A stretch of 64,000 nucleotides of DNA from Dehalococcoidia bacterium (GTDB lineage: Bacteria > Chloroflexota > Dehalococcoidia > UBA2979). Of the stretch, positions 3 through 60,610 are shown piece by piece. The stretch is from contig CAXXDN010000002.1 of assembly GCA_963667465.2 (NCBI GenBank), forward strand, positions 256,001 to 320,000, read 5' to 3'. How positions within the stretch are numbered: position 1 is the stretch's first letter; every line of letters begins with the position of its first letter. The notes beneath the pieces were generated by a model that had not been told where the DNA came from, did no database searches, and was given only the letters and a program-made list of their open reading frames with translations. The translations under genes were made by a program, and so were the position numbers.

Positions 3-473
3 GTGCTGGCGGGCTGGCGCGAGGCTGGCGTGGCGTGGCGGCGCAGCGAGGAATCGCGCCGCCACGAGCTCGAAACGACCATCAGCCAGCTCGCGAACGA
101 CCGCTTCCCGTTCCCGGACGAGGCGCATCCGGACTACCGCACCTACGTCAACGTGCCGGAGCCGCAACTGGCGCTGGAGTTCACCGCGGGCGGCGCCTCG
201 CGCTCGCAGGTCTTCCCGGACATCGTCGTCGTCGAGCACCCGCGCAACCGCCCGATCATGGTCGCGCAGGTGGAGACGAAGGAAACGGTGACACGGCGCC
301 AGGCCGAGCTGGTCTGGGCGCAACTCGAGAACGACGACGCGCCGCTCTACATCTACGTGCCGTCCGGGTTCGCGGCCCGGGCCCGCGACTACGCGATCGC
401 CGCCGGCATCGAGCACGCGAGGATTCGCACGTGGCGACGCCAGCCGGGCAGGATGCTCGTCCGCGAGCTCTAG
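3..473 (+). CDS. Hypothetical protein with PD-(D/E)xK-like motif (probably 5'-partial)
   Basis: Protein-like composition; VFPDIVVVE...AQVETKE resembles a PD-(D/E)xK core; runs from the window edge. Confidence 0.6.
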   Translation: MLAGWREAGVAWRRSEESRRHELETTISQLANDRFPFPDEAHPDYRTYVNVPEPQLALEFTAGGASRSQVFPDIVVVEHPRNRPIMVAQVETKETVTRRQAELVWAQLENDDAPLYIYVPSGFAARARDYAIAAGIEHARIRTWRRQPGRMLVREL

Positions 474-54710: not shown

Positions 54711-55577
54711 CTACGCCTCGGCCTGGTCGTAGCCCTCGTCGATGTGCTCGAAGCGCCTCGCGACGACGCGGCGCGTCTCCGTGTGGGTGAGGATGTAGGC
54801 GCGCCGCTCGCGCACGCCCGCGAGGACCGCGCGGCCCACATCGAGCGGGTCGCGGCGTGCGTCGGGGGAGCGGCTCGGGTCACGCGGCGCGACGCGCTGC
54901 GCGATGATCGGCGCGGGGATGTCGCGCGCCGGTCCGAACGCGTCCTGCCGGTTGCGTTGCGCCTCGCCGATGCGCGTGTGCGTGGCGCCGGGGCAGAACA
55001 GCGTGACGTCGATGCCCCCGGGCGCCAACTCGAGGCGCAGCGACTCGGTCAGCCCGACGACGGCGAACTTGGAGGCGACGTAACCGCCGAGGTTGCCGCC
55101 GCCGCGCCCGGCGACGAGCCCGGACATCGACGACGTGTTGATGATCTGAGCGCGTGTGCCGTCCTCGTCTGGCTCCTGCTCTTGCATGCGCGGCACGAAG
55201 ACCTGCACGCCGTTGAGCACCCCGTAGAGGTTCACGGCGAGCATCCAGTCGAGGTCGCTCGCCGGCATCTCGGCCGTTGGGCCGAAGACCAGCACCCCGG
55301 CATTGTTGAACAGCACGTCGACGGCGCCGAACTCGCCGTAGGCCATGTCGGCCAGCGCGCCCACCGAGGCCGGGTCGGACACGTCGGCGGAAGCCCCCAG
55401 GCTGCGCACGCCGTGCTCGCGCACGAGCGCCGCCGTCTCCTCCGCCGCGCCGCCCTCGATGTCCGCCACGACGACGTGCATGCCCAGCTCCGCCGCGGCG
55501 AGGCAGATGCCGCGCCCGATCCCGCTGCCACCGCCCGTCACCACCGCCACGCGCCCTCCGAGGTCACGCATCGCCAT
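54711..55577 (-). CDS. SDR oxidoreductase
   Basis: TGGGSGIG, NNAG, YVASK. Confidence 0.93.
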   Translation of the reverse strand: MAMRDLGGRVAVVTGGGSGIGRGICLAAAELGMHVVVADIEGGAAEETAALVREHGVRSLGASADVSDPASVGALADMAYGEFGAVDVLFNNAGVLVFGPTAEMPASDLDWMLAVNLYGVLNGVQVFVPRMQEQEPDEDGTRAQIINTSSMSGLVAGRGGGNLGGYVASKFAVVGLTESLRLELAPGGIDVTLFCPGATHTRIGEAQRNRQDAFGPARDIPAPIIAQRVAPRDPSRSPDARRDPLDVGRAVLAGVRERRAYILTHTETRRVVARRFEHIDEGYDQAEA

Positions 55578-56607
55578 CGTCCTTTCCCGCGCCGTTCGTT
55601 CCGGTCAGGCCAAACTCCTCGGCCAGCAGCTCGTAGGAGCGCAGCCGGTCCTTGTAGTCGTACGTGATCGTCACGACCACGAACTCGTCGACCGCGAGCT
55701 CCCGGGCGAGCGCCTCGAGGCGATCGCGCAGGCGCTGCGGGCCGCCGACGAGGCTGGTCTGCTTCTGATACTCGATGAAGTCGAGCTCGGGCTGTGAGAG
55801 GCGCTCGGCCTCGGGGTCGTCGGGTGGAGGCACGCCGATGCGCAGGCCCTGGCGATTGCGCAGGCGCCACAGCCAGCGGCTCATCGCCAGCCGCTCGGCC
55901 TCCTCGTCCGTCTCGGCGCAGAGTGCGGAGACGCCGGCATTGACGAGTGGCTCGTCGAGCCACTGCGAGGGCCGGAAGAGGCGCCGGTAGAGCGTGATCG
56001 CCTCGCCGGCCCACTCGGCCTGGATGAAGTGCGCGAAGGAGAAGGGCAGCCCCTGCTCCGCCGCCGTGCTGGCGCTGTCCAGCGAGGAGCCGAGCAGCCA
56101 CGGCGTCGGGACGCTCTCGCCGCGCGGCTGGGCGTGGATGCCGGTCAGCGGGTGGCCCTCGGGCAGCTCGTCGCGGAGCAGCCGCATCAGGTCGGCGACC
56201 TGGCGCGGGTAGTGAGCGACATCGCGCATGCCCGGCCCCGGCGCGAGCGCCGCCGAGGTGCGGCCGTCCGTGCCCGGCGCGCGCCCCAGCCCGAGGTCGA
56301 TGCGGCCGGGGAACATCGTCTCCAGCATCCGGAACTGCTCGGCCACCTTGAGCGACGAGTAATGCGGCAGCATCACGCCGCCCGAGCCCACGCGAATGCG
56401 CGACGTCACCGAGGCGACGCGCGGGATCAGCACCTCGGGCGCGGCGCAGGCGAGCCCGCTGCTGTTGTGGTGCTCCGCCAGCCAGTAGCGGGTGTAGCCG
56501 AGCCGCTCTGTCGCCTGCGCGAGCTGCAGCGTCTCCTCGATCGCCCCGGCGGCCGTGCCGCCCTGGCGGATCGGCGACTGATCGAGGACGCCGAGGGTGA
56601 TCGCCAC
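55564..56607 (-). CDS. LLM-class flavin-dependent oxidoreductase (YhbW-like)
   Basis: VLDQSP, WLAEHH, GSGGVML, DLGLGRAPG, LGSS. Confidence 0.92.
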   Translation of the reverse strand: MAITLGVLDQSPIRQGGTAAGAIEETLQLAQATERLGYTRYWLAEHHNSSGLACAAPEVLIPRVASVTSRIRVGSGGVMLPHYSSLKVAEQFRMLETMFPGRIDLGLGRAPGTDGRTSAALAPGPGMRDVAHYPRQVADLMRLLRDELPEGHPLTGIHAQPRGESVPTPWLLGSSLDSASTAAEQGLPFSFAHFIQAEWAGEAITLYRRLFRPSQWLDEPLVNAGVSALCAETDEEAERLAMSRWLWRLRNRQGLRIGVPPPDDPEAERLSQPELDFIEYQKQTSLVGGPQRLRDRLEALARELAVDEFVVVTITYDYKDRLRSYELLAEEFGLTGTNGAGKDDGDA

Positions 56608-56690
56608 GCTGCCGCTCCGTCCGCTCGCGCTGTTGCGTTACGCGTCAGGGTACCGCGAGCGTCGCTCTGCGGCGCGGGGGCGCCGGACGC

Positions 56691-56719
56691 AAAGCGGGCG
56701 CGCTCATGGCGCGCCCGCT
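56691..56719 (-). terminator. Probable terminator of the thiolase/DUF35 operon
   Basis: 11-bp stem AGCGGGCGCGC/GCGCGCCCGCT with a short U tail on the minus strand. Confidence 0.55.
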
Positions 56720-56744
56720 GGCTGTGCCGCGCTAGGTGGCGGCC

Positions 56745-57170
56745 TTACGAGGCGACCGGCCTCCACTGCGGCAGCGTCCAGTCGTCGTCGACCTTCTCGA
56801 AGTAGACCTCGACGGGCAGGTCGCAGACGGCTTCCTCGACGGGGATGTCGACGTTGCCCATCATGCGCAGGCCCTCGTCGAGCTGGATCACTCCGAAGAT
56901 GTAGGGCACACGCTCCTGGAACCATGGATCCTGCGCCTGGGCGATGATCGTGAAGGTGTGGAGCCGCCCCTTGCCGCTCACCTCCACCCACTCGTAGTCG
57001 TTGGAGAAGCAGTGCGGGAGCGGGCAGAACTCGCGTGGGTACCAGAACAGCCGGCTGCAGGCGTTGCAGCGCTGGACCGTGAGCCGCTCCTCCTTCGTCG
57101 CCTCCCAGAAGGGCTCGGTGAGTGCGTTCGCCTGCGGTACGGGCCGCTTCGGGCCATCGTCGTTGGTCAT
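56745..57170 (-). CDS. Zn-ribbon/OB-fold DUF35 protein
   Basis: PFWE, QRCNAC, YPR.FCP..HC, SGKG, LDEG.RMMGN, PQW. Confidence 0.92.
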   Translation of the reverse strand: MTNDDGPKRPVPQANALTEPFWEATKEERLTVQRCNACSRLFWYPREFCPLPHCFSNDYEWVEVSGKGRLHTFTIIAQAQDPWFQERVPYIFGVIQLDEGLRMMGNVDIPVEEAVCDLPVEVYFEKVDDDWTLPQWRPVAS

Positions 57171-57259
57171 CGTCCGCGTCCCCTCCTGCTCCTGTCACCC
57201 GCCGCCACTGGAGGCGGCGGGCGCGCTCCGGCGCTTCGTTCAAGGTGGCTACCGTTTGG

Positions 57260-58426
57260 TTACTTGGGGTCCTTCCCGAGGACCAGTGAGCACATCACGC
57301 TCAGTCCGCCACCTCAGCCGTTGACGAAGCAGTAATCCACCGTTTCCTTCTGGCGGCCCTCGCCGCGGCCCATCAGCTGGCGCACCGCCTCCGTGGCGTG
57401 CGACATGCCTCCGGCGGTGCCGGGCTGGCCGAACGAGAGCTGGCCGCCGTGGGTGTTCACGGCGATGCCGTCGCTCTTGTAGGTGACGTCCTCGTTCGCG
57501 AAGTACGTTCCGCCCTCGCCCTTGGGGGCGAAGCCGGCGTCCTCGAACTCGATGATCACCGTGATCGTGTAGCAGTCGTACAGCGAGGCGATGTCCATCT
57601 CGTTGGGCCCAACGCCGGCCATCTTGTAGGCGGCGCGGGCCGAGAGCTCGACCGGGGACTTCGTCATGCGGTCCACGTAGGTGATGCCCGGCACGCCGCG
57701 GTCCATCGAGTGACCGACGCCGAGGATGTAGACGGGGTCGTGCGGGGATGACTCGACGGCCTCCGGGCGGCTCACCATCAGCGCCGCGGCGCCGAGGGTC
57801 GGCATCACGCACTCGAGCAGGGTCAGCGGGTTCGCGACCATGCGCGAGTTGAGCACATCGTCGGTGGTCGCGGGGGTGCCGTAGAAGGCCGCATCCGGGT
57901 TCGCCTGGGCGTTCTCCCGCTGCTGCACCGCGATCGCGACGCGCTCCTCGTCGGTGAGGCCGAACTCGTGCTTGTAGCGGTTGGCGACCAGCGCGTACCA
58001 GAAGTTCGCGCCGGGGCCCGGTCCGAACGGACCGGCGAACTGCGGGAACTGGCCGCCGATGGCGCCACCACCGCCGCCGCCGAAGCCGCCGACCTCGCCG
58101 GAGGTGACCAGGCAGAGCACGTTGTTGGCCAGTCCGGAATTGACGGCCATCGCCGCGATGGCGACCGACGTGGGGCCGGACGAGCCCATCATGTTCACGC
58201 CGTGCGCCCAGGTCGGCTGGATGCCGAGGGTCTCCGCGAACTCACAGGTGTTGAGGAAGGGGATCTCCGTGATCAGCCCGTCCACCTGCTCCTTGAGCAG
58301 GCCCGAGTCCTCGATGCAGAGGCGCGCCGCCTCCTGCGCCAGGCCGGGGCCGGTGCGGCCGGGCTTGCGCCGCTCCGGCTTCAGTTCGCCGATTCCGATG
58401 ATCGAGGCCGCTCCGCGCAGGCTCAT
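57260..58426 (-). CDS. Thiolase-superfamily (SCP2/Ltp2-type) protein with in-frame TGA, candidate selenoprotein
   Basis: LYDCYT, EDAGFAPKGEGG, NTHGGQLS, EAVRQL; TGA at 57314-57316 followed in frame by GGGLSVMCSLVLGKDPK-TAA. Confidence 0.8.
57280..57307 (-). promoter_or_regulatory. SECIS-like hairpin 3' of the thiolase UGA
   Basis: GGAC-TGAGCG-TGATG-TGCTCA-CTG-GTCC; upper stem starts after a 10-nt spacer from UGA. Confidence 0.6.
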
Positions 58427-58652
58427 CGGCAGCTCCTCCCGCTCGCGTCTGGGCAGGCTCGCGAATGGCAGATCGGTTCCCGCCCTTCGCGTCTTCATCG
58501 AATCTAACAGTCCGCGAGCAGGCTAGCGAACCCTTGACTTTGCTCCAACGCTACATAACGGCAGAAAATTGGCGCCGATTCCGGAATCGGCGCACGCGGG
58601 TGCGATCCGGCCGCCCGACGGCGCTAGAATCCGAAACCGAGGGAGGCCGCCC

Positions 58653-58904
58653 ATGAGCGAAGAGCAGGGAGTCGAGATCACGGTCGAGTACTGCGTGCCG
58701 TGCAGCTATCTCGCCCGCGCGCAGTGGATGATCGGCGAGATCATGTACGACATCCAGGACGACGTACGAAGGCTGGAGATGCGCACCGGCGACGGCGGCT
58801 GCTTCGAGTGGTCCGTGGACGGTGAGCTGGTCTTCAGCAAGAAACAGAGCGGGCGCTTCCCGGAGATCGAGGAACTCAAGGAACTGATCTACTCGCGCGT
58901 CTGA
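58653..58904 (+). CDS. Rdx (SelT/SelW/SelH) family protein, CxxC form
   Basis: VEYCVPC, GGCFE..VDGELVFSK, GRFPE; TAGAAT -10 and GGAGG SD. Confidence 0.9.
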   Translation: MSEEQGVEITVEYCVPCSYLARAQWMIGEIMYDIQDDVRRLEMRTGDGGCFEWSVDGELVFSKKQSGRFPEIEELKELIYSRV

Positions 58905-58935
58905 TCGTGCGACTGGAGGCACCGAGGAGCGGAAG

Positions 58936-59492
58936 ATGAGCAACACGATCCGGGTCTACGACCCCACGGGCCACGCCCCCGTCGAGCAGTACCCGCTGGC
59001 GCCGCTGCCCGCCTCGCTCGACGGCCTGCGCCCCGGCATCGTCGAGAACCGCAAGGCCAACGCTGGCCTGCTGATGCGGCAGCTGGTCGCGGGCCTGCGC
59101 GAACACTTCGAGCTCGGCGAGCTGACGACGATCGGCAAGCCGAGCGCCGGACCGCCGACGAAGCGCAACGAGCGCAAGCTCGTGGAGGGAGCCGACTTCG
59201 CTCTCATCGGATCGAGCGACTGAGGATCCTGCACGGCGTGGAGTGTCCACGCCTCCATCCTCTTCGAGCGGCAGGGCATCCCCACCGTCAACATCACCAC
59301 CGAGGCGTTCGTCAGCCTGTTCGAGCTCGAGGCCGAGCAGCGCGGCATGCCGGACCTGCGCTACATCGTGGTGCCGCACCCGATCGGCGGCATCCGGGAA
59401 GACGCCGTCGCCGAGAAGGCCCGCGCCTCCATCCGGACCTGCTGGCGTCGCTTACGCCCGAGCCCGTGCCGATCGCCGGTGGCGACCGATGA
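58936..59492 (+). CDS. UGSC-family selenoprotein (Sec at 59221-59223; apparent 1-nt frameshift near 59434)
   Basis: GIVENRKANA, GSSD-TGA-GSCTAWSVH, ERQGIPTV, VVPHPIG in one frame. Confidence 0.85.
59235..59253 (+). promoter_or_regulatory. Bacterial SECIS element
   Basis: Perfect stem GGCGTGGA-GTG-TCCACGCC after an 11-nt spacer from UGA. Confidence 0.8.
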
Positions 59493-60610
59493 CGACGGGC
59501 GCCACGTCCCGCCTCGGCGATCCCGCGGCGCTGGTCGAGCTGCCCGCCGATCCGGGCGAGCTGCACGACGCCTTCGCCGAGCGCGGCTGGTCGGACGGCC
59601 TGCCCGTCATCCCGCCCACCGAGGAGCGGGTCGAGGCGATGCTCGCCTACACCGATCGCGATCGGCGCGAGGTGCTGGGCGTGCTGCCGCCTCGCCGCGG
59701 CGTGGCGACCATCGAGGTGGTGGCGATCAACGCCGTCCTCGCGGGCTGCGAGCCGCGCGCGCTGCCGCTGCTGCTGGCGGCGGTGCAGGGCATCGTGCAG
59801 CCGCAGTTCAACCTCAGCGGCATCAACGCGACGACGCACCCGTGCGCGGTGCTGGTGCTCGTCAACGGCCCAATCGGGCGCGAGCTGGGGGTGCACGGCG
59901 GCCCCGGCTGCTACGGCCCCGGCTTTCGCGCGAACGCAACGATCGGGCGCGCGATCCGGCTGCTGCTGCTCAACGTTGCGGGCGCCTCGCCCGGTCACGG
60001 CGACCGCGCCACGCAGGGCACGCCCGCCAAGTTCGCGCTCTGCCTCGCGGAGAACGAGGAGGCCAGCCCGTGGCCGCCGTTCCACACCACGCGCGGCTTC
60101 GAGCCGGAGGACAGCACGGTCACCGTCGCCGCCAGCGAGGGTCCGCACAACATCCAGGAGCACGGCAGCAACACCGCGCTCGGCGTCCTGCAGACGGTCG
60201 CCGGCGCGCTCGGGCAAGCGGGGAGCAACAACATCCTCAGCCGTGGCGAGCCGCTGCTCGCGCTTGGCCCCGAGCACGCCGCGACGATCGCCTACGAGGG
60301 TTGGACCCGCGAGGGTGTCCAGCAGTACGTCCACGAGCACGCGCGCTACCCCGCGTCGCGGCTCTCACCTGAGTTCCTCGAGTCCGTCAACGTGCGCATC
60401 GAGCCGGAGTCGGGGCTCGTTCAGTTCCCGGCGGACGCGCTGCTCCCAATCGTCAACGAGCCGGAGCACCTGCAGCTCTTCGTCGCCGGCGGGCCGGGCA
60501 AGCACTCCTCGTGGCTGCCGACCTTCGGACAGCGCACCCAGCCGGTCACGACCGTGATCGCCGACCGCTTCGGTCGCCCCGTCGGCAGCGTCGAGGACCT
60601 TCGCGGCTAA
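59489..60610 (+). CDS. UGSC-associated conserved protein (WSDGLP family)
   Basis: GWSDGLPVIPPTEERVEAML, INAVLAGC, ANATIGRAIRL, AENEE.SPW, VAGGPG. Confidence 0.8.
   Translation: MTTGATSRLGDPAALVELPADPGELHDAFAERGWSDGLPVIPPTEERVEAMLAYTDRDRREVLGVLPPRRGVATIEVVAINAVLAGCEPRALPLLLAAVQGIVQPQFNLSGINATTHPCAVLVLVNGPIGRELGVHGGPGCYGPGFRANATIGRAIRLLLLNVAGASPGHGDRATQGTPAKFALCLAENEEASPWPPFHTTRGFEPEDSTVTVAASEGPHNIQEHGSNTALGVLQTVAGALGQAGSNNILSRGEPLLALGPEHAATIAYEGWTREGVQQYVHEHARYPASRLSPEFLESVNVRIEPESGLVQFPADALLPIVNEPEHLQLFVAGGPGKHSSWLPTFGQRTQPVTTVIADRFGRPVGSVEDLRG

Follow-up and report, generated by a model that had tools for sequence, protein, structure and literature searches.

The stretch of DNA analysed here (64,000 nucleotides, hereinafter the window; positions 256,001 to 320,000 of contig CAXXDN010000002.1 from the assembly GCA_963667465.2 of a marine Dehalococcoidia bacterium) contains, on its minus strand, a gene for a thiolase-fold protein in which codon 371 is an in-frame TGA. 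Judging from the comparison of homologous sequences, this UGA is in all likelihood decoded as selenocysteine (Sec). Taken as a whole, the locus very likely represents an intact selenoprotein gene coding for an enzyme of the Sal/Ltp2 branch of the thiolase superfamily, with Sec371 placed at the position of the CxG cysteine of classical thiolases. An earlier note on this DNA had proposed that the UGA encodes Sec, and this proposal is supported by the conservation of the TGA, the coding-like evolution of the sequence that follows it, a hairpin that is characteristic of the TGA forms only, and the presence of the Sec machinery in the genome. The elements described in that note, i.e. the TGA, the frame that continues for 17 codons to a TAA, and the hairpin with its 10-nucleotide (nt) spacer and GGAC/GTCC extension, are all present in the sequence (Table 1).

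A search for read-through homologs in a sample of 41 related genomes identifies proteins with one TGA in 16 of these genomes, with up to four paralogs per genome and with sequence identity ranging from 100% down to 44%; in the alignment, the TGA occupies the identical codon in all TGA homologs detected in this search. When 185,579 species genomes are scanned with a sequence pattern, at least 115 stretches are obtained, including at least 90 verified homologs with the stop, all of them preselected in the sense that the pattern itself demands C-x-V-N-G-TGA-G-G. When the matches from the related genomes are combined with the listed matches of the pattern scan, the TGA is found at the same aligned codon in at least 115 distinct contexts, among homologs with identity down to 42%, many of which come from closely related metagenome-assembled genomes, so that they cannot be counted as independent. 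This recurrence goes far beyond chance. Of the at least 90 verified loci, all but one are assigned to Dehalococcoidia, SAR202, Chloroflexi/Chloroflexota or Chloroflexia, the sole exception (L142) being a 1.5-kb contig binned as Rhodospirillaceae, and the family appears to be confined to Dehalococcoidia/SAR202. Three pattern loci (L077, L085 and L111) are not counted as verified, presumably because their matches are located too close to the end of the locus; another 22 with other taxonomic labels, along with L158 (Ktedonobacteria), are chance matches for which no homology was found.

The Sec forms share a further distinctive residue. A cysteine located five residues upstream of the TGA (Cys366) is present in all 46 of the best 120 protein clusters that stop exactly after residue 370 and in none of the 73 full-length clusters; the same residue is found in 30 of the 32 loci that were identified by protein search rather than by the pattern. 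The cysteine eight residues C-terminal of the UGA codon (Cys379), to which the earlier note drew attention, is indeed present in this protein but is not conserved: a cysteine at +8 is found in only 79 of the 115 listed contexts. As a candidate partner of the Sec, it was dropped given this distribution and given that, by the hairpin register of the structural model, it would lie on the other face of the sheet.

A hairpin that resembles bacterial Sec insertion sequences (SECIS) lies directly downstream of the UGA. The hairpin overlaps coding sequence, and therefore its folding energy was compared with a null obtained from recodings that keep the peptide and the codon usage of the gene itself. 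For the TGA forms, the minimum free energy of the entire folding window is -19.9 kcal/mol, compared to -13.1 kcal/mol for the null, with 54 of 81 sequences in the lowest 5%, whereas for the non-TGA homologs, the respective values are -13.4 and -13.2 kcal/mol, with 0 of 10 in the lowest 5%. The difference is retained for a positioned hairpin, with the loop centre 17-23 nt after the codon: -12.5 against -5.5 in the TGA forms (43 of 69 in the lowest 5%) and -4.2 against -4.6 at the same site in the non-TGA homologs (1 of 10). Among 93 unique TGA forms, the longest perfect helix typically spans 6-10 bp and encloses a 5-nt loop centred at +19 or +21. Two reference hairpins from the same genome, those of a UGSC-family selenoprotein gene and of selD, have loops at +20..22 and +17..20, respectively, and this geometry matches that of hairpin 1.

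In an alignment of 82 hairpin sequences (A2), one register pairs 72.4% of the cells, compared to 33-52% when the structure is slid, and the number of compensatory cells is 42, against 19.9 +/- 3.5 in shuffles, a value exceeded in 0 of 500. The covariation that the earlier note suggested looking for is thus detectable by this measure; it does not extend to two other measures, pairs changed on both sides and further pair types, which do not beat the shuffles (316 of 500 and 354 of 500, respectively). An alternative register of the hairpin behaves alike, with 466 of 500 and 499 of 500 shuffles for the same two measures. A single consensus structure for all 82 hairpins was rejected: the registers at +19 and +21 coexist with a third form in the 'SSMAT' clade. 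The loop holds the ATG codon of Met378, which is invariant in 82 of 82 aligned sequences; in full-length non-Sec homologs, this residue is, by eye, mostly Gln or Glu. Hairpin 2 is also kept in all three clades, with shifted registers and compensatory changes (A2 columns 34-51; e.g., columns 36/49 contain CG in 29 sequences and UA in 17). One of these compensatory changes couples a Val codon (GUC/GUU) to an Asp/Asn change (GAC/AAC). Hairpin 2 competes with the GUCC extension of hairpin 1.

In 30 distinct full-length relatives, a second TGA is located exactly at the Cys codon of the YDCY motif, which corresponds to Cys285 in the protein analysed here. In a quick maximum-likelihood tree of 107 rows, a set that includes pattern-scan loci, residue 285 changes between Cys and Sec at least seven times, and Sec371 only four times. 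A positioned hairpin following TGA285 has an energy of -10.1 against -6.2 for the null, and 19 of 23 such sequences fall within the lowest quartile, compared to 21 of 74 Cys forms; plain folding energy, calculated without the synonymous null, does not split the two forms at this site (-11.1 and -10.7). By the pattern of substitution in the alignment, residue 285 in these relatives is a classic Cys/Sec pair. Given that a TGA in the middle of a gene, at a catalytic Cys, cannot be a stop, these relatives are a strong and independent argument that the family decodes UGA as Sec.

The genome from which the window comes (2.97 Mb, 70% G+C) encodes tRNA-Sec (one among 52 tRNA genes), selA, selB and a Sec-type selD, i.e. 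all the selABCD genes that the earlier note had proposed to look for. The profile scores are 299 bits for selB (cut-off 242), 517 for selA (268) and 358 for selD (125), and selD itself contains one TGA (SCGG-U-AGK; L010:1531, G000:C1), the hairpin loop being found 17-20 nt after the UGA. Of the 41 related genomes, 33 have selB; of the 16 that carry TGA forms, 15 are among these 33, and the one exception (G021, 89% complete) possesses selA, tRNA-Sec and a TGA-containing selD. The TGA form is found in none of the remaining seven selB-negative genomes, in which the best homologs, where present, have AAC, TCC or GTG. This co-occurrence is consistent with the Sec reading, although it is not decisive because the related genomes are not independent.

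Besides the preselection of the pattern loci and the non-independence of the counts, several observations weigh against Sec decoding of codon 371. In most selenoproteins, the Sec site is occupied by Cys in homologs, and the earlier note expected TGY codons at this position in non-Sec genomes; the TGA is indeed conserved, but TGY is not found in the 73 full-length clusters, in which site 371 is Asn in 69, Ser in 3, Lys in 1 and Cys in 0. Among 150 distant representatives, 4 of which end at residue 370, the site is variable (Asn in 28, Thr in 14 and Cys in 2). A permissive Rfam scan of positions 56600-60000 retrieves only a chance match to a small nucleolar RNA (E 0.52), and the whole-window folding energy after TGA285 does not stand out from the synonymous recodings (1 of 26 in the lowest 5%). 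Contigs from two RNA libraries (X15 and X17), which represent relatives with about 93% identity, cover the end of the gene, the TGA and part of the adjacent DUF35 gene, but prove neither transcription nor the identity of the codon, considering that DNA may be present in the library.

Paralogs are present in several of these genomes. In the genome of the window, at least 19 thiolase-like paralogs match this protein, and the TGA occurs in this one only; the closest paralog (C2:855652-856803, 61% identity) has Asn at site 371 and nests within the Sec clade on the tree. The genome of the window carries a single copy of the TGA form, and in G009 a short, 72%-identical fragment is found beside its copy. 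Tandem TGA-form paralogs that are about 73% identical and about 0.7 kb apart are found in several genomes of the genus, at G001:C3:48610-51611 and also in G004, G011, G012, G014 and G017. A divergent TGA form, L027 (G029:C6:411160-412311), has the sequence FVNT-U-RGY, lacks Cys366 and contains Ser at +8; in the tree, it is the sister of a sequence with Asn at the Sec site. The locus L052 (G017:C4:339459-340223) contains an extra TAG and is only partially covered, and is probably a decaying copy.

Profile and structure comparisons give good support for placing the predicted protein in the Sal/Ltp2 aldolase branch of thiolase-fold enzymes rather than among the classical thiolases. A Foldseek search gives template modelling (TM) scores of 0.76-0.89 to thiolase-fold structures, with 9myr_A, 4u4e and 6ok1 as the best relatives. 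All Pfam domains of classical thiolases score under the cut-off for this protein, the classical thiolase model TIGR01930 reaches 18.5 bits against a cut-off of 240.55, and none of the NCBIfam models is above its cut-off (the best is PRK06158, with 248.9 against 421 bits). The thiolase-like enzyme of the earlier note is therefore confirmed at the level of the superfamily (PF22691 and the fold) and reassigned with respect to the branch. An hhalign comparison with the three classical thiolases of the same genome (probability 96%) aligns Sec371 with the Cys of CIGGG, YDCY with NEAF and GQP with GHP; it also aligns Gly81 with the nucleophile Cys of CGSG, in agreement with the previously claimed absence of the usual nucleophile from GVNMMGSSGP. 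The assignment of the UGA to the loop that carries the CxG catalytic Cys is upheld by this alignment, with the qualification that the close non-Sec homologs contain Asn, not Cys, in this place.

The closest characterized relative is CtSal (PDB 9MYR), the bile-acid side-chain retro-aldolase of Comamonas testosteroni, which is bound to a DUF35 domain (PMC12329534). It is both the best PDB match (E 8.3e-75) and the best fold match (TM 0.89, 39% identity). As described for CtSal, Tyr302 and Cys304 of the YDCY motif are the catalytic residues, the position of the thiolase nucleophile is taken by Gly, a thiolate-stabilizing role is proposed for Gln347 and Gln352, and the oxyanion hole is made up of the backbone of Gly391 and the side chain of Gln161 (PMC12329534). 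The protein analysed here keeps Tyr283, Cys285, Gln329, Gln334 and Gly373, has Gly at the nucleophile position and is accompanied by a DUF35 gene. It differs from CtSal in that Sec371 replaces Thr389, two residues before the oxyanion-hole glycine (Gly391/Gly373), and Ala140 replaces Gln161, the side-chain half of the oxyanion hole; furthermore, the DUF35 domain of CtSal's partner is part of the MaoC hydratase Shy, whereas here it is a free-standing 141-amino-acid (aa) protein. The steroid aldolase Ltp2-ChsH2(DUF35) (PDB 6OK1) similarly combines a thiolase fold that lacks the catalytic cysteines with a DUF35 partner, and its Tyr294 is the equivalent of Tyr283, but it contains YDHF instead of YDCY and a second catalytic tyrosine, Tyr344, with which a Thr is aligned here.

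The comparison with classical and SCP2-type thiolases reveals the same fold, with Sec371 equivalent to the CxG Cys and Cys285 to the HDCF Cys of SCP2 thiolases, enzymes that have lost the CxG Cys and rely on the HDCF Cys instead (PMC7682436). With respect to the classical enzymes, the nucleophile Cys is replaced by Gly81, NEAF by YDCY, GHP by GQP, and CxG by UGG. Of these two Cys positions, known thiolases make use of one, whereas members of this family have a chalcogen residue at both. Two distant proteins, P0143 and P0225, have Cys at the aligned CxG position, with the Cys of YDCY replaced by Ala or Ser, in an uncertain alignment; if this alignment is correct, these sequences suggest that the catalytic Cys can occupy either position in this branch. 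With known bacterial selenoproteins (UGSC, SelD, GrdB/PrdB), the family shares the in-frame UGA, the 3' hairpin with its loop about 17-23 nt downstream, the predicted dependence on selABCD and, in relatives, the Cys/Sec pair at residue 285; it differs from them in having a thiolase fold instead of a thioredoxin-like or redox fold, and Asn rather than Cys at the Sec site of close homologs.

A plausible mechanism can be outlined from these comparisons. UGA371 is most naturally understood as being decoded as Sec by means of the hairpin 10 nt downstream together with tRNA-Sec, SelA, SelB and SelD, with translation running 17 residues further to supply the final loop and strand of the fold. The enzyme, together with its DUF35 subunit, is predicted to cleave or form a C-C bond beside a coenzyme A (CoA) thioester, in a retro-aldol or Claisen-type reaction. 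As the alignments suggest, the selenol of Sec371 and Cys285 (Sec in some relatives) would act at the alpha-carbon/enolate site, where the selenol might serve as a proton donor/acceptor or as a nucleophile. The neighbouring genes for a luciferase-like monooxygenase and a short-chain dehydrogenase suggest that the substrate undergoing breakdown could be an oxygenated alicyclic or branched acyl-CoA. A more specific, and rather doubtful, possibility is that Sec371 and Cys/Sec285 form a two-chalcogen dyad over the alpha-carbon of the acyl-CoA, with a chemistry that is undescribed for the thiolase fold. Such a dyad might cleave the C-C bond via a selenoester or an Se-C intermediate, Sec being the relocated nucleophile, or else might carry out a reductive alpha-cleavage like that of glycine/proline reductase, leaving a selenenylsulfide at the end.

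It is conceivable, albeit unlikely, that Sec371 and Cys285 are not involved in acid/base catalysis but are mainly a redox pair, forming a selenenylsulfide (or a diselenide in the two-Sec forms), with a regulatory role or a reductive one at the alpha-carbon. Such a function would be in line with the redox nature of most bacterial selenoproteins (PMC13188914) and with the repeated Cys-Sec switches of residue 285, and the Sec-specific Cys366 could then be the resolving residue. However, the protein has the fold of a C-C lyase and has kept the YDCY, Gln and Gly residues of such an enzyme, a reductase partner gene is absent from the operon, and the structural model puts residues 366 and 371 five positions apart on one strand.

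Far less probable is that the UGA is a genuine stop, in which case the product would be a 370-residue protein and the downstream stretch an RNA element involved, for example, in translational coupling with the DUF35 gene. Gene callers do end the protein at this point in 46 of the best 120 clusters, and the interval from the TGA to the DUF35 gene contains two conserved hairpins. Against this interpretation, the stretch keeps its frame and its length in 115 of the 115 listed contexts, the next in-frame stop being found 17 codons after the TGA in 22 of them and 18 codons in the other 93, whereas the stop distance in the other two frames is scattered. Sequence entropy in the tail is 1.17 at the third codon position, compared to 0.58 at the first and 0.52 at the second, and this third-position variability supports the conclusion that the tail evolves like coding sequence. 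At the protein level, the tail is homologous to, and aligns with, the C-termini of full-length homologs. The match to Pfam PF22691 (Thiolase_C_1; 132.6 bits, cut-off 28) reaches the end of the profile (144/144) only with the tail included, and in an AlphaFold (AF2) model (mean predicted local distance difference test, pLDDT, 81; predicted TM score 0.87), residues 377-384 of the tail form the last strand, which pairs with the strand 365-372 in a block with pLDDT 85-95. Without the stretch, both the end of the Pfam domain and this last strand would be missing; the Gly-rich loop and final beta strand that the earlier note attributed to the tail are thus borne out. Finally, termination cannot account for TGA285, which in 30 relatives takes the place of the catalytic Cys codon in the middle of the gene.

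An equally improbable alternative, which dispenses with selenium, is that Cys, Trp or Arg is inserted at the UGA, either by a near-cognate tRNA or owing to a lineage-wide reassignment. The variety of residues tolerated at position 371 in distant homologs would accommodate such read-through. However, of the five proteins of the same genome that match at E<=1e-40, only the one analysed here contains an in-frame TGA, and selA and selB have none, which excludes a genome-wide reassignment. In addition, Sec insertion agrees with both the positioned hairpin and the completeness of the Sec machinery, and the TGA form is missing from all seven of the other selB-negative related genomes, which lack other Sec genes as well.

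A sequencing or assembly error, or a pseudogene, which a single TGA in an otherwise open frame and the decayed appearance of the relative L052 with its extra TAG might suggest, is refuted for all practical purposes by the same TGA in at least 90 verified loci of named assemblies and in 16 related genomes, and by a contig of run X6, a sponge metagenome from a different study, that spans positions 56734-57346 including the TGA with zero differences, in line with the read check proposed in the earlier note. A contig of run X5 also matches the whole window with zero differences, although this run may be the source of the assembly.

The claim that the family is absent from the known selenoprotein families agrees with the literature surveyed here. 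Thiolase terms are absent from the main texts of PMC13188914, PMC12013277, PMC13326102, PMC2398784, PMC9402790, bioRxiv 10.1101/2022.07.06.499078, PMC5029168 and PMC9312934, the supplements of which may list the family. The first of these, a 2026 review, offers its Table 1 as the most comprehensive selenoprotein inventory, and PF22691, PF00108 and PF02803 are also absent from its main text. A full-text literature search combining thiolase and selenoprotein retrieves nothing on topic, as judged by the listings and PMC5109826, and one combining SAR202 and selenocysteine retrieves nothing relevant by title. Apparently, then, this is a selenoprotein family within the thiolase superfamily that is unlisted in the searched literature, which is not to say that it is unpublished. 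The presence of Asn rather than Cys at the Sec site of close homologs may explain why screens for Cys/Sec pairs missed the family; because of this Asn, such screens would miss the one-Sec forms.

If the Sec reading is correct, the thiolase fold, which is that of a C-C bond enzyme and not of a thiol oxidoreductase, joins the selenoproteins, with Sec on a textbook catalytic position. The family is common in Dehalococcoidia/SAR202, as its presence in 16 of the 41 relatives and up to four copies per genome indicate, and is systematically truncated in the databases. It also raises a biochemical question, namely what the selenol does beside the catalytic Cys of a Sal-type aldolase, and suggests that selenium may be connected with carbon turnover in the sea. 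Should the two-chalcogen dyad, too, be real, the degradation of refractory organic carbon by SAR202-type Dehalococcoidia would be linked to the supply of selenium.

Table 1. Features of the predicted selenoprotein locus (positions within the window)
Feature	Position	Strand	Description
Full read-through coding sequence	57260..58426	minus	predicted thiolase-fold (Sal/Ltp2-like) selenoprotein; 388 residues + TAA
ATG start	58426-58424	minus	GGAGG 9 nt 5' of ATG
In-frame TGA, codon 371	57314..57316	minus	predicted selenocysteine
Post-UGA tail, 17 codons	57263..57313	minus	GGGLSVMCSLVLGKDPK; Gly-rich loop + last beta strand
TAA terminator of read-through frame	57260-57262	minus	
Hairpin 1, core	57287..57303	minus	UGAGCG-UGAUG-UGCUCA; SECIS-like; +11 to +27; spacer 10 nt
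Hairpin 1, GGAC/GUCC extension	57280-57307	minus	
Hairpin 2	57268..57284	minus	GGUCCU-CGGGA-AGGACC; directly 3' of hairpin 1
YDCY motif	57569..57580	minus	Tyr283-Asp284-Cys285-Tyr286; catalytic Tyr/Cys pair of Sal-type aldolases
Cys366	57329..57331	minus	-5 from Sec371; seen only in Sec forms
Gly81	58184..58186	minus	at thiolase nucleophile Cys position (hhalign); within GVNMMGSSGP
DUF35 partner gene	56745..57170	minus	141 aa; zinc ribbon + oligonucleotide/oligosaccharide-binding (OB) fold; Pfam PF12172 + PF01796
Luciferase-like monooxygenase gene	55564..56607	minus	Pfam PF00296, E 8.4e-37
Short-chain dehydrogenase gene	54711..55577	minus	Pfam PF00106, E 6.3e-47

The DUF35 gene starts 89 nt downstream of the selenoprotein gene, and this arrangement is a conserved feature of the family: of 138 TGA-form genes, 122 have a DUF35 gene 24-215 nt downstream, and in 11 more cases the locus ends too early. 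The luciferase-like monooxygenase gene is probably encoded in the same operon as the selenoprotein gene, judged by spacing alone. No steroid genes were seen near the selenoprotein gene.

The clear selenoprotein that the earlier note placed 1.9 kb away is a member of UGSC, a published selenoprotein family (PMC2398784); its TGA (59221-59223, plus strand) is located 1,905 nt from TGA371. The UGSC gene starts at 58936 on the plus strand, an 8-bp hairpin begins at +12 after its TGA, and its reading frame stays open, with no stop before 60372. Upstream of the thiolase-fold selenoprotein gene, on the opposite strand, there is an Rdx/SelW-like open reading frame (ORF) with a CVPC motif (58653-58904, plus). 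Another plus-strand ORF, of 373 aa (59489-60610), shows no Pfam match and may correspond to the 'Unknown_1' domain, which is fused to UGSC proteins according to the Global Ocean Sampling (GOS) paper.

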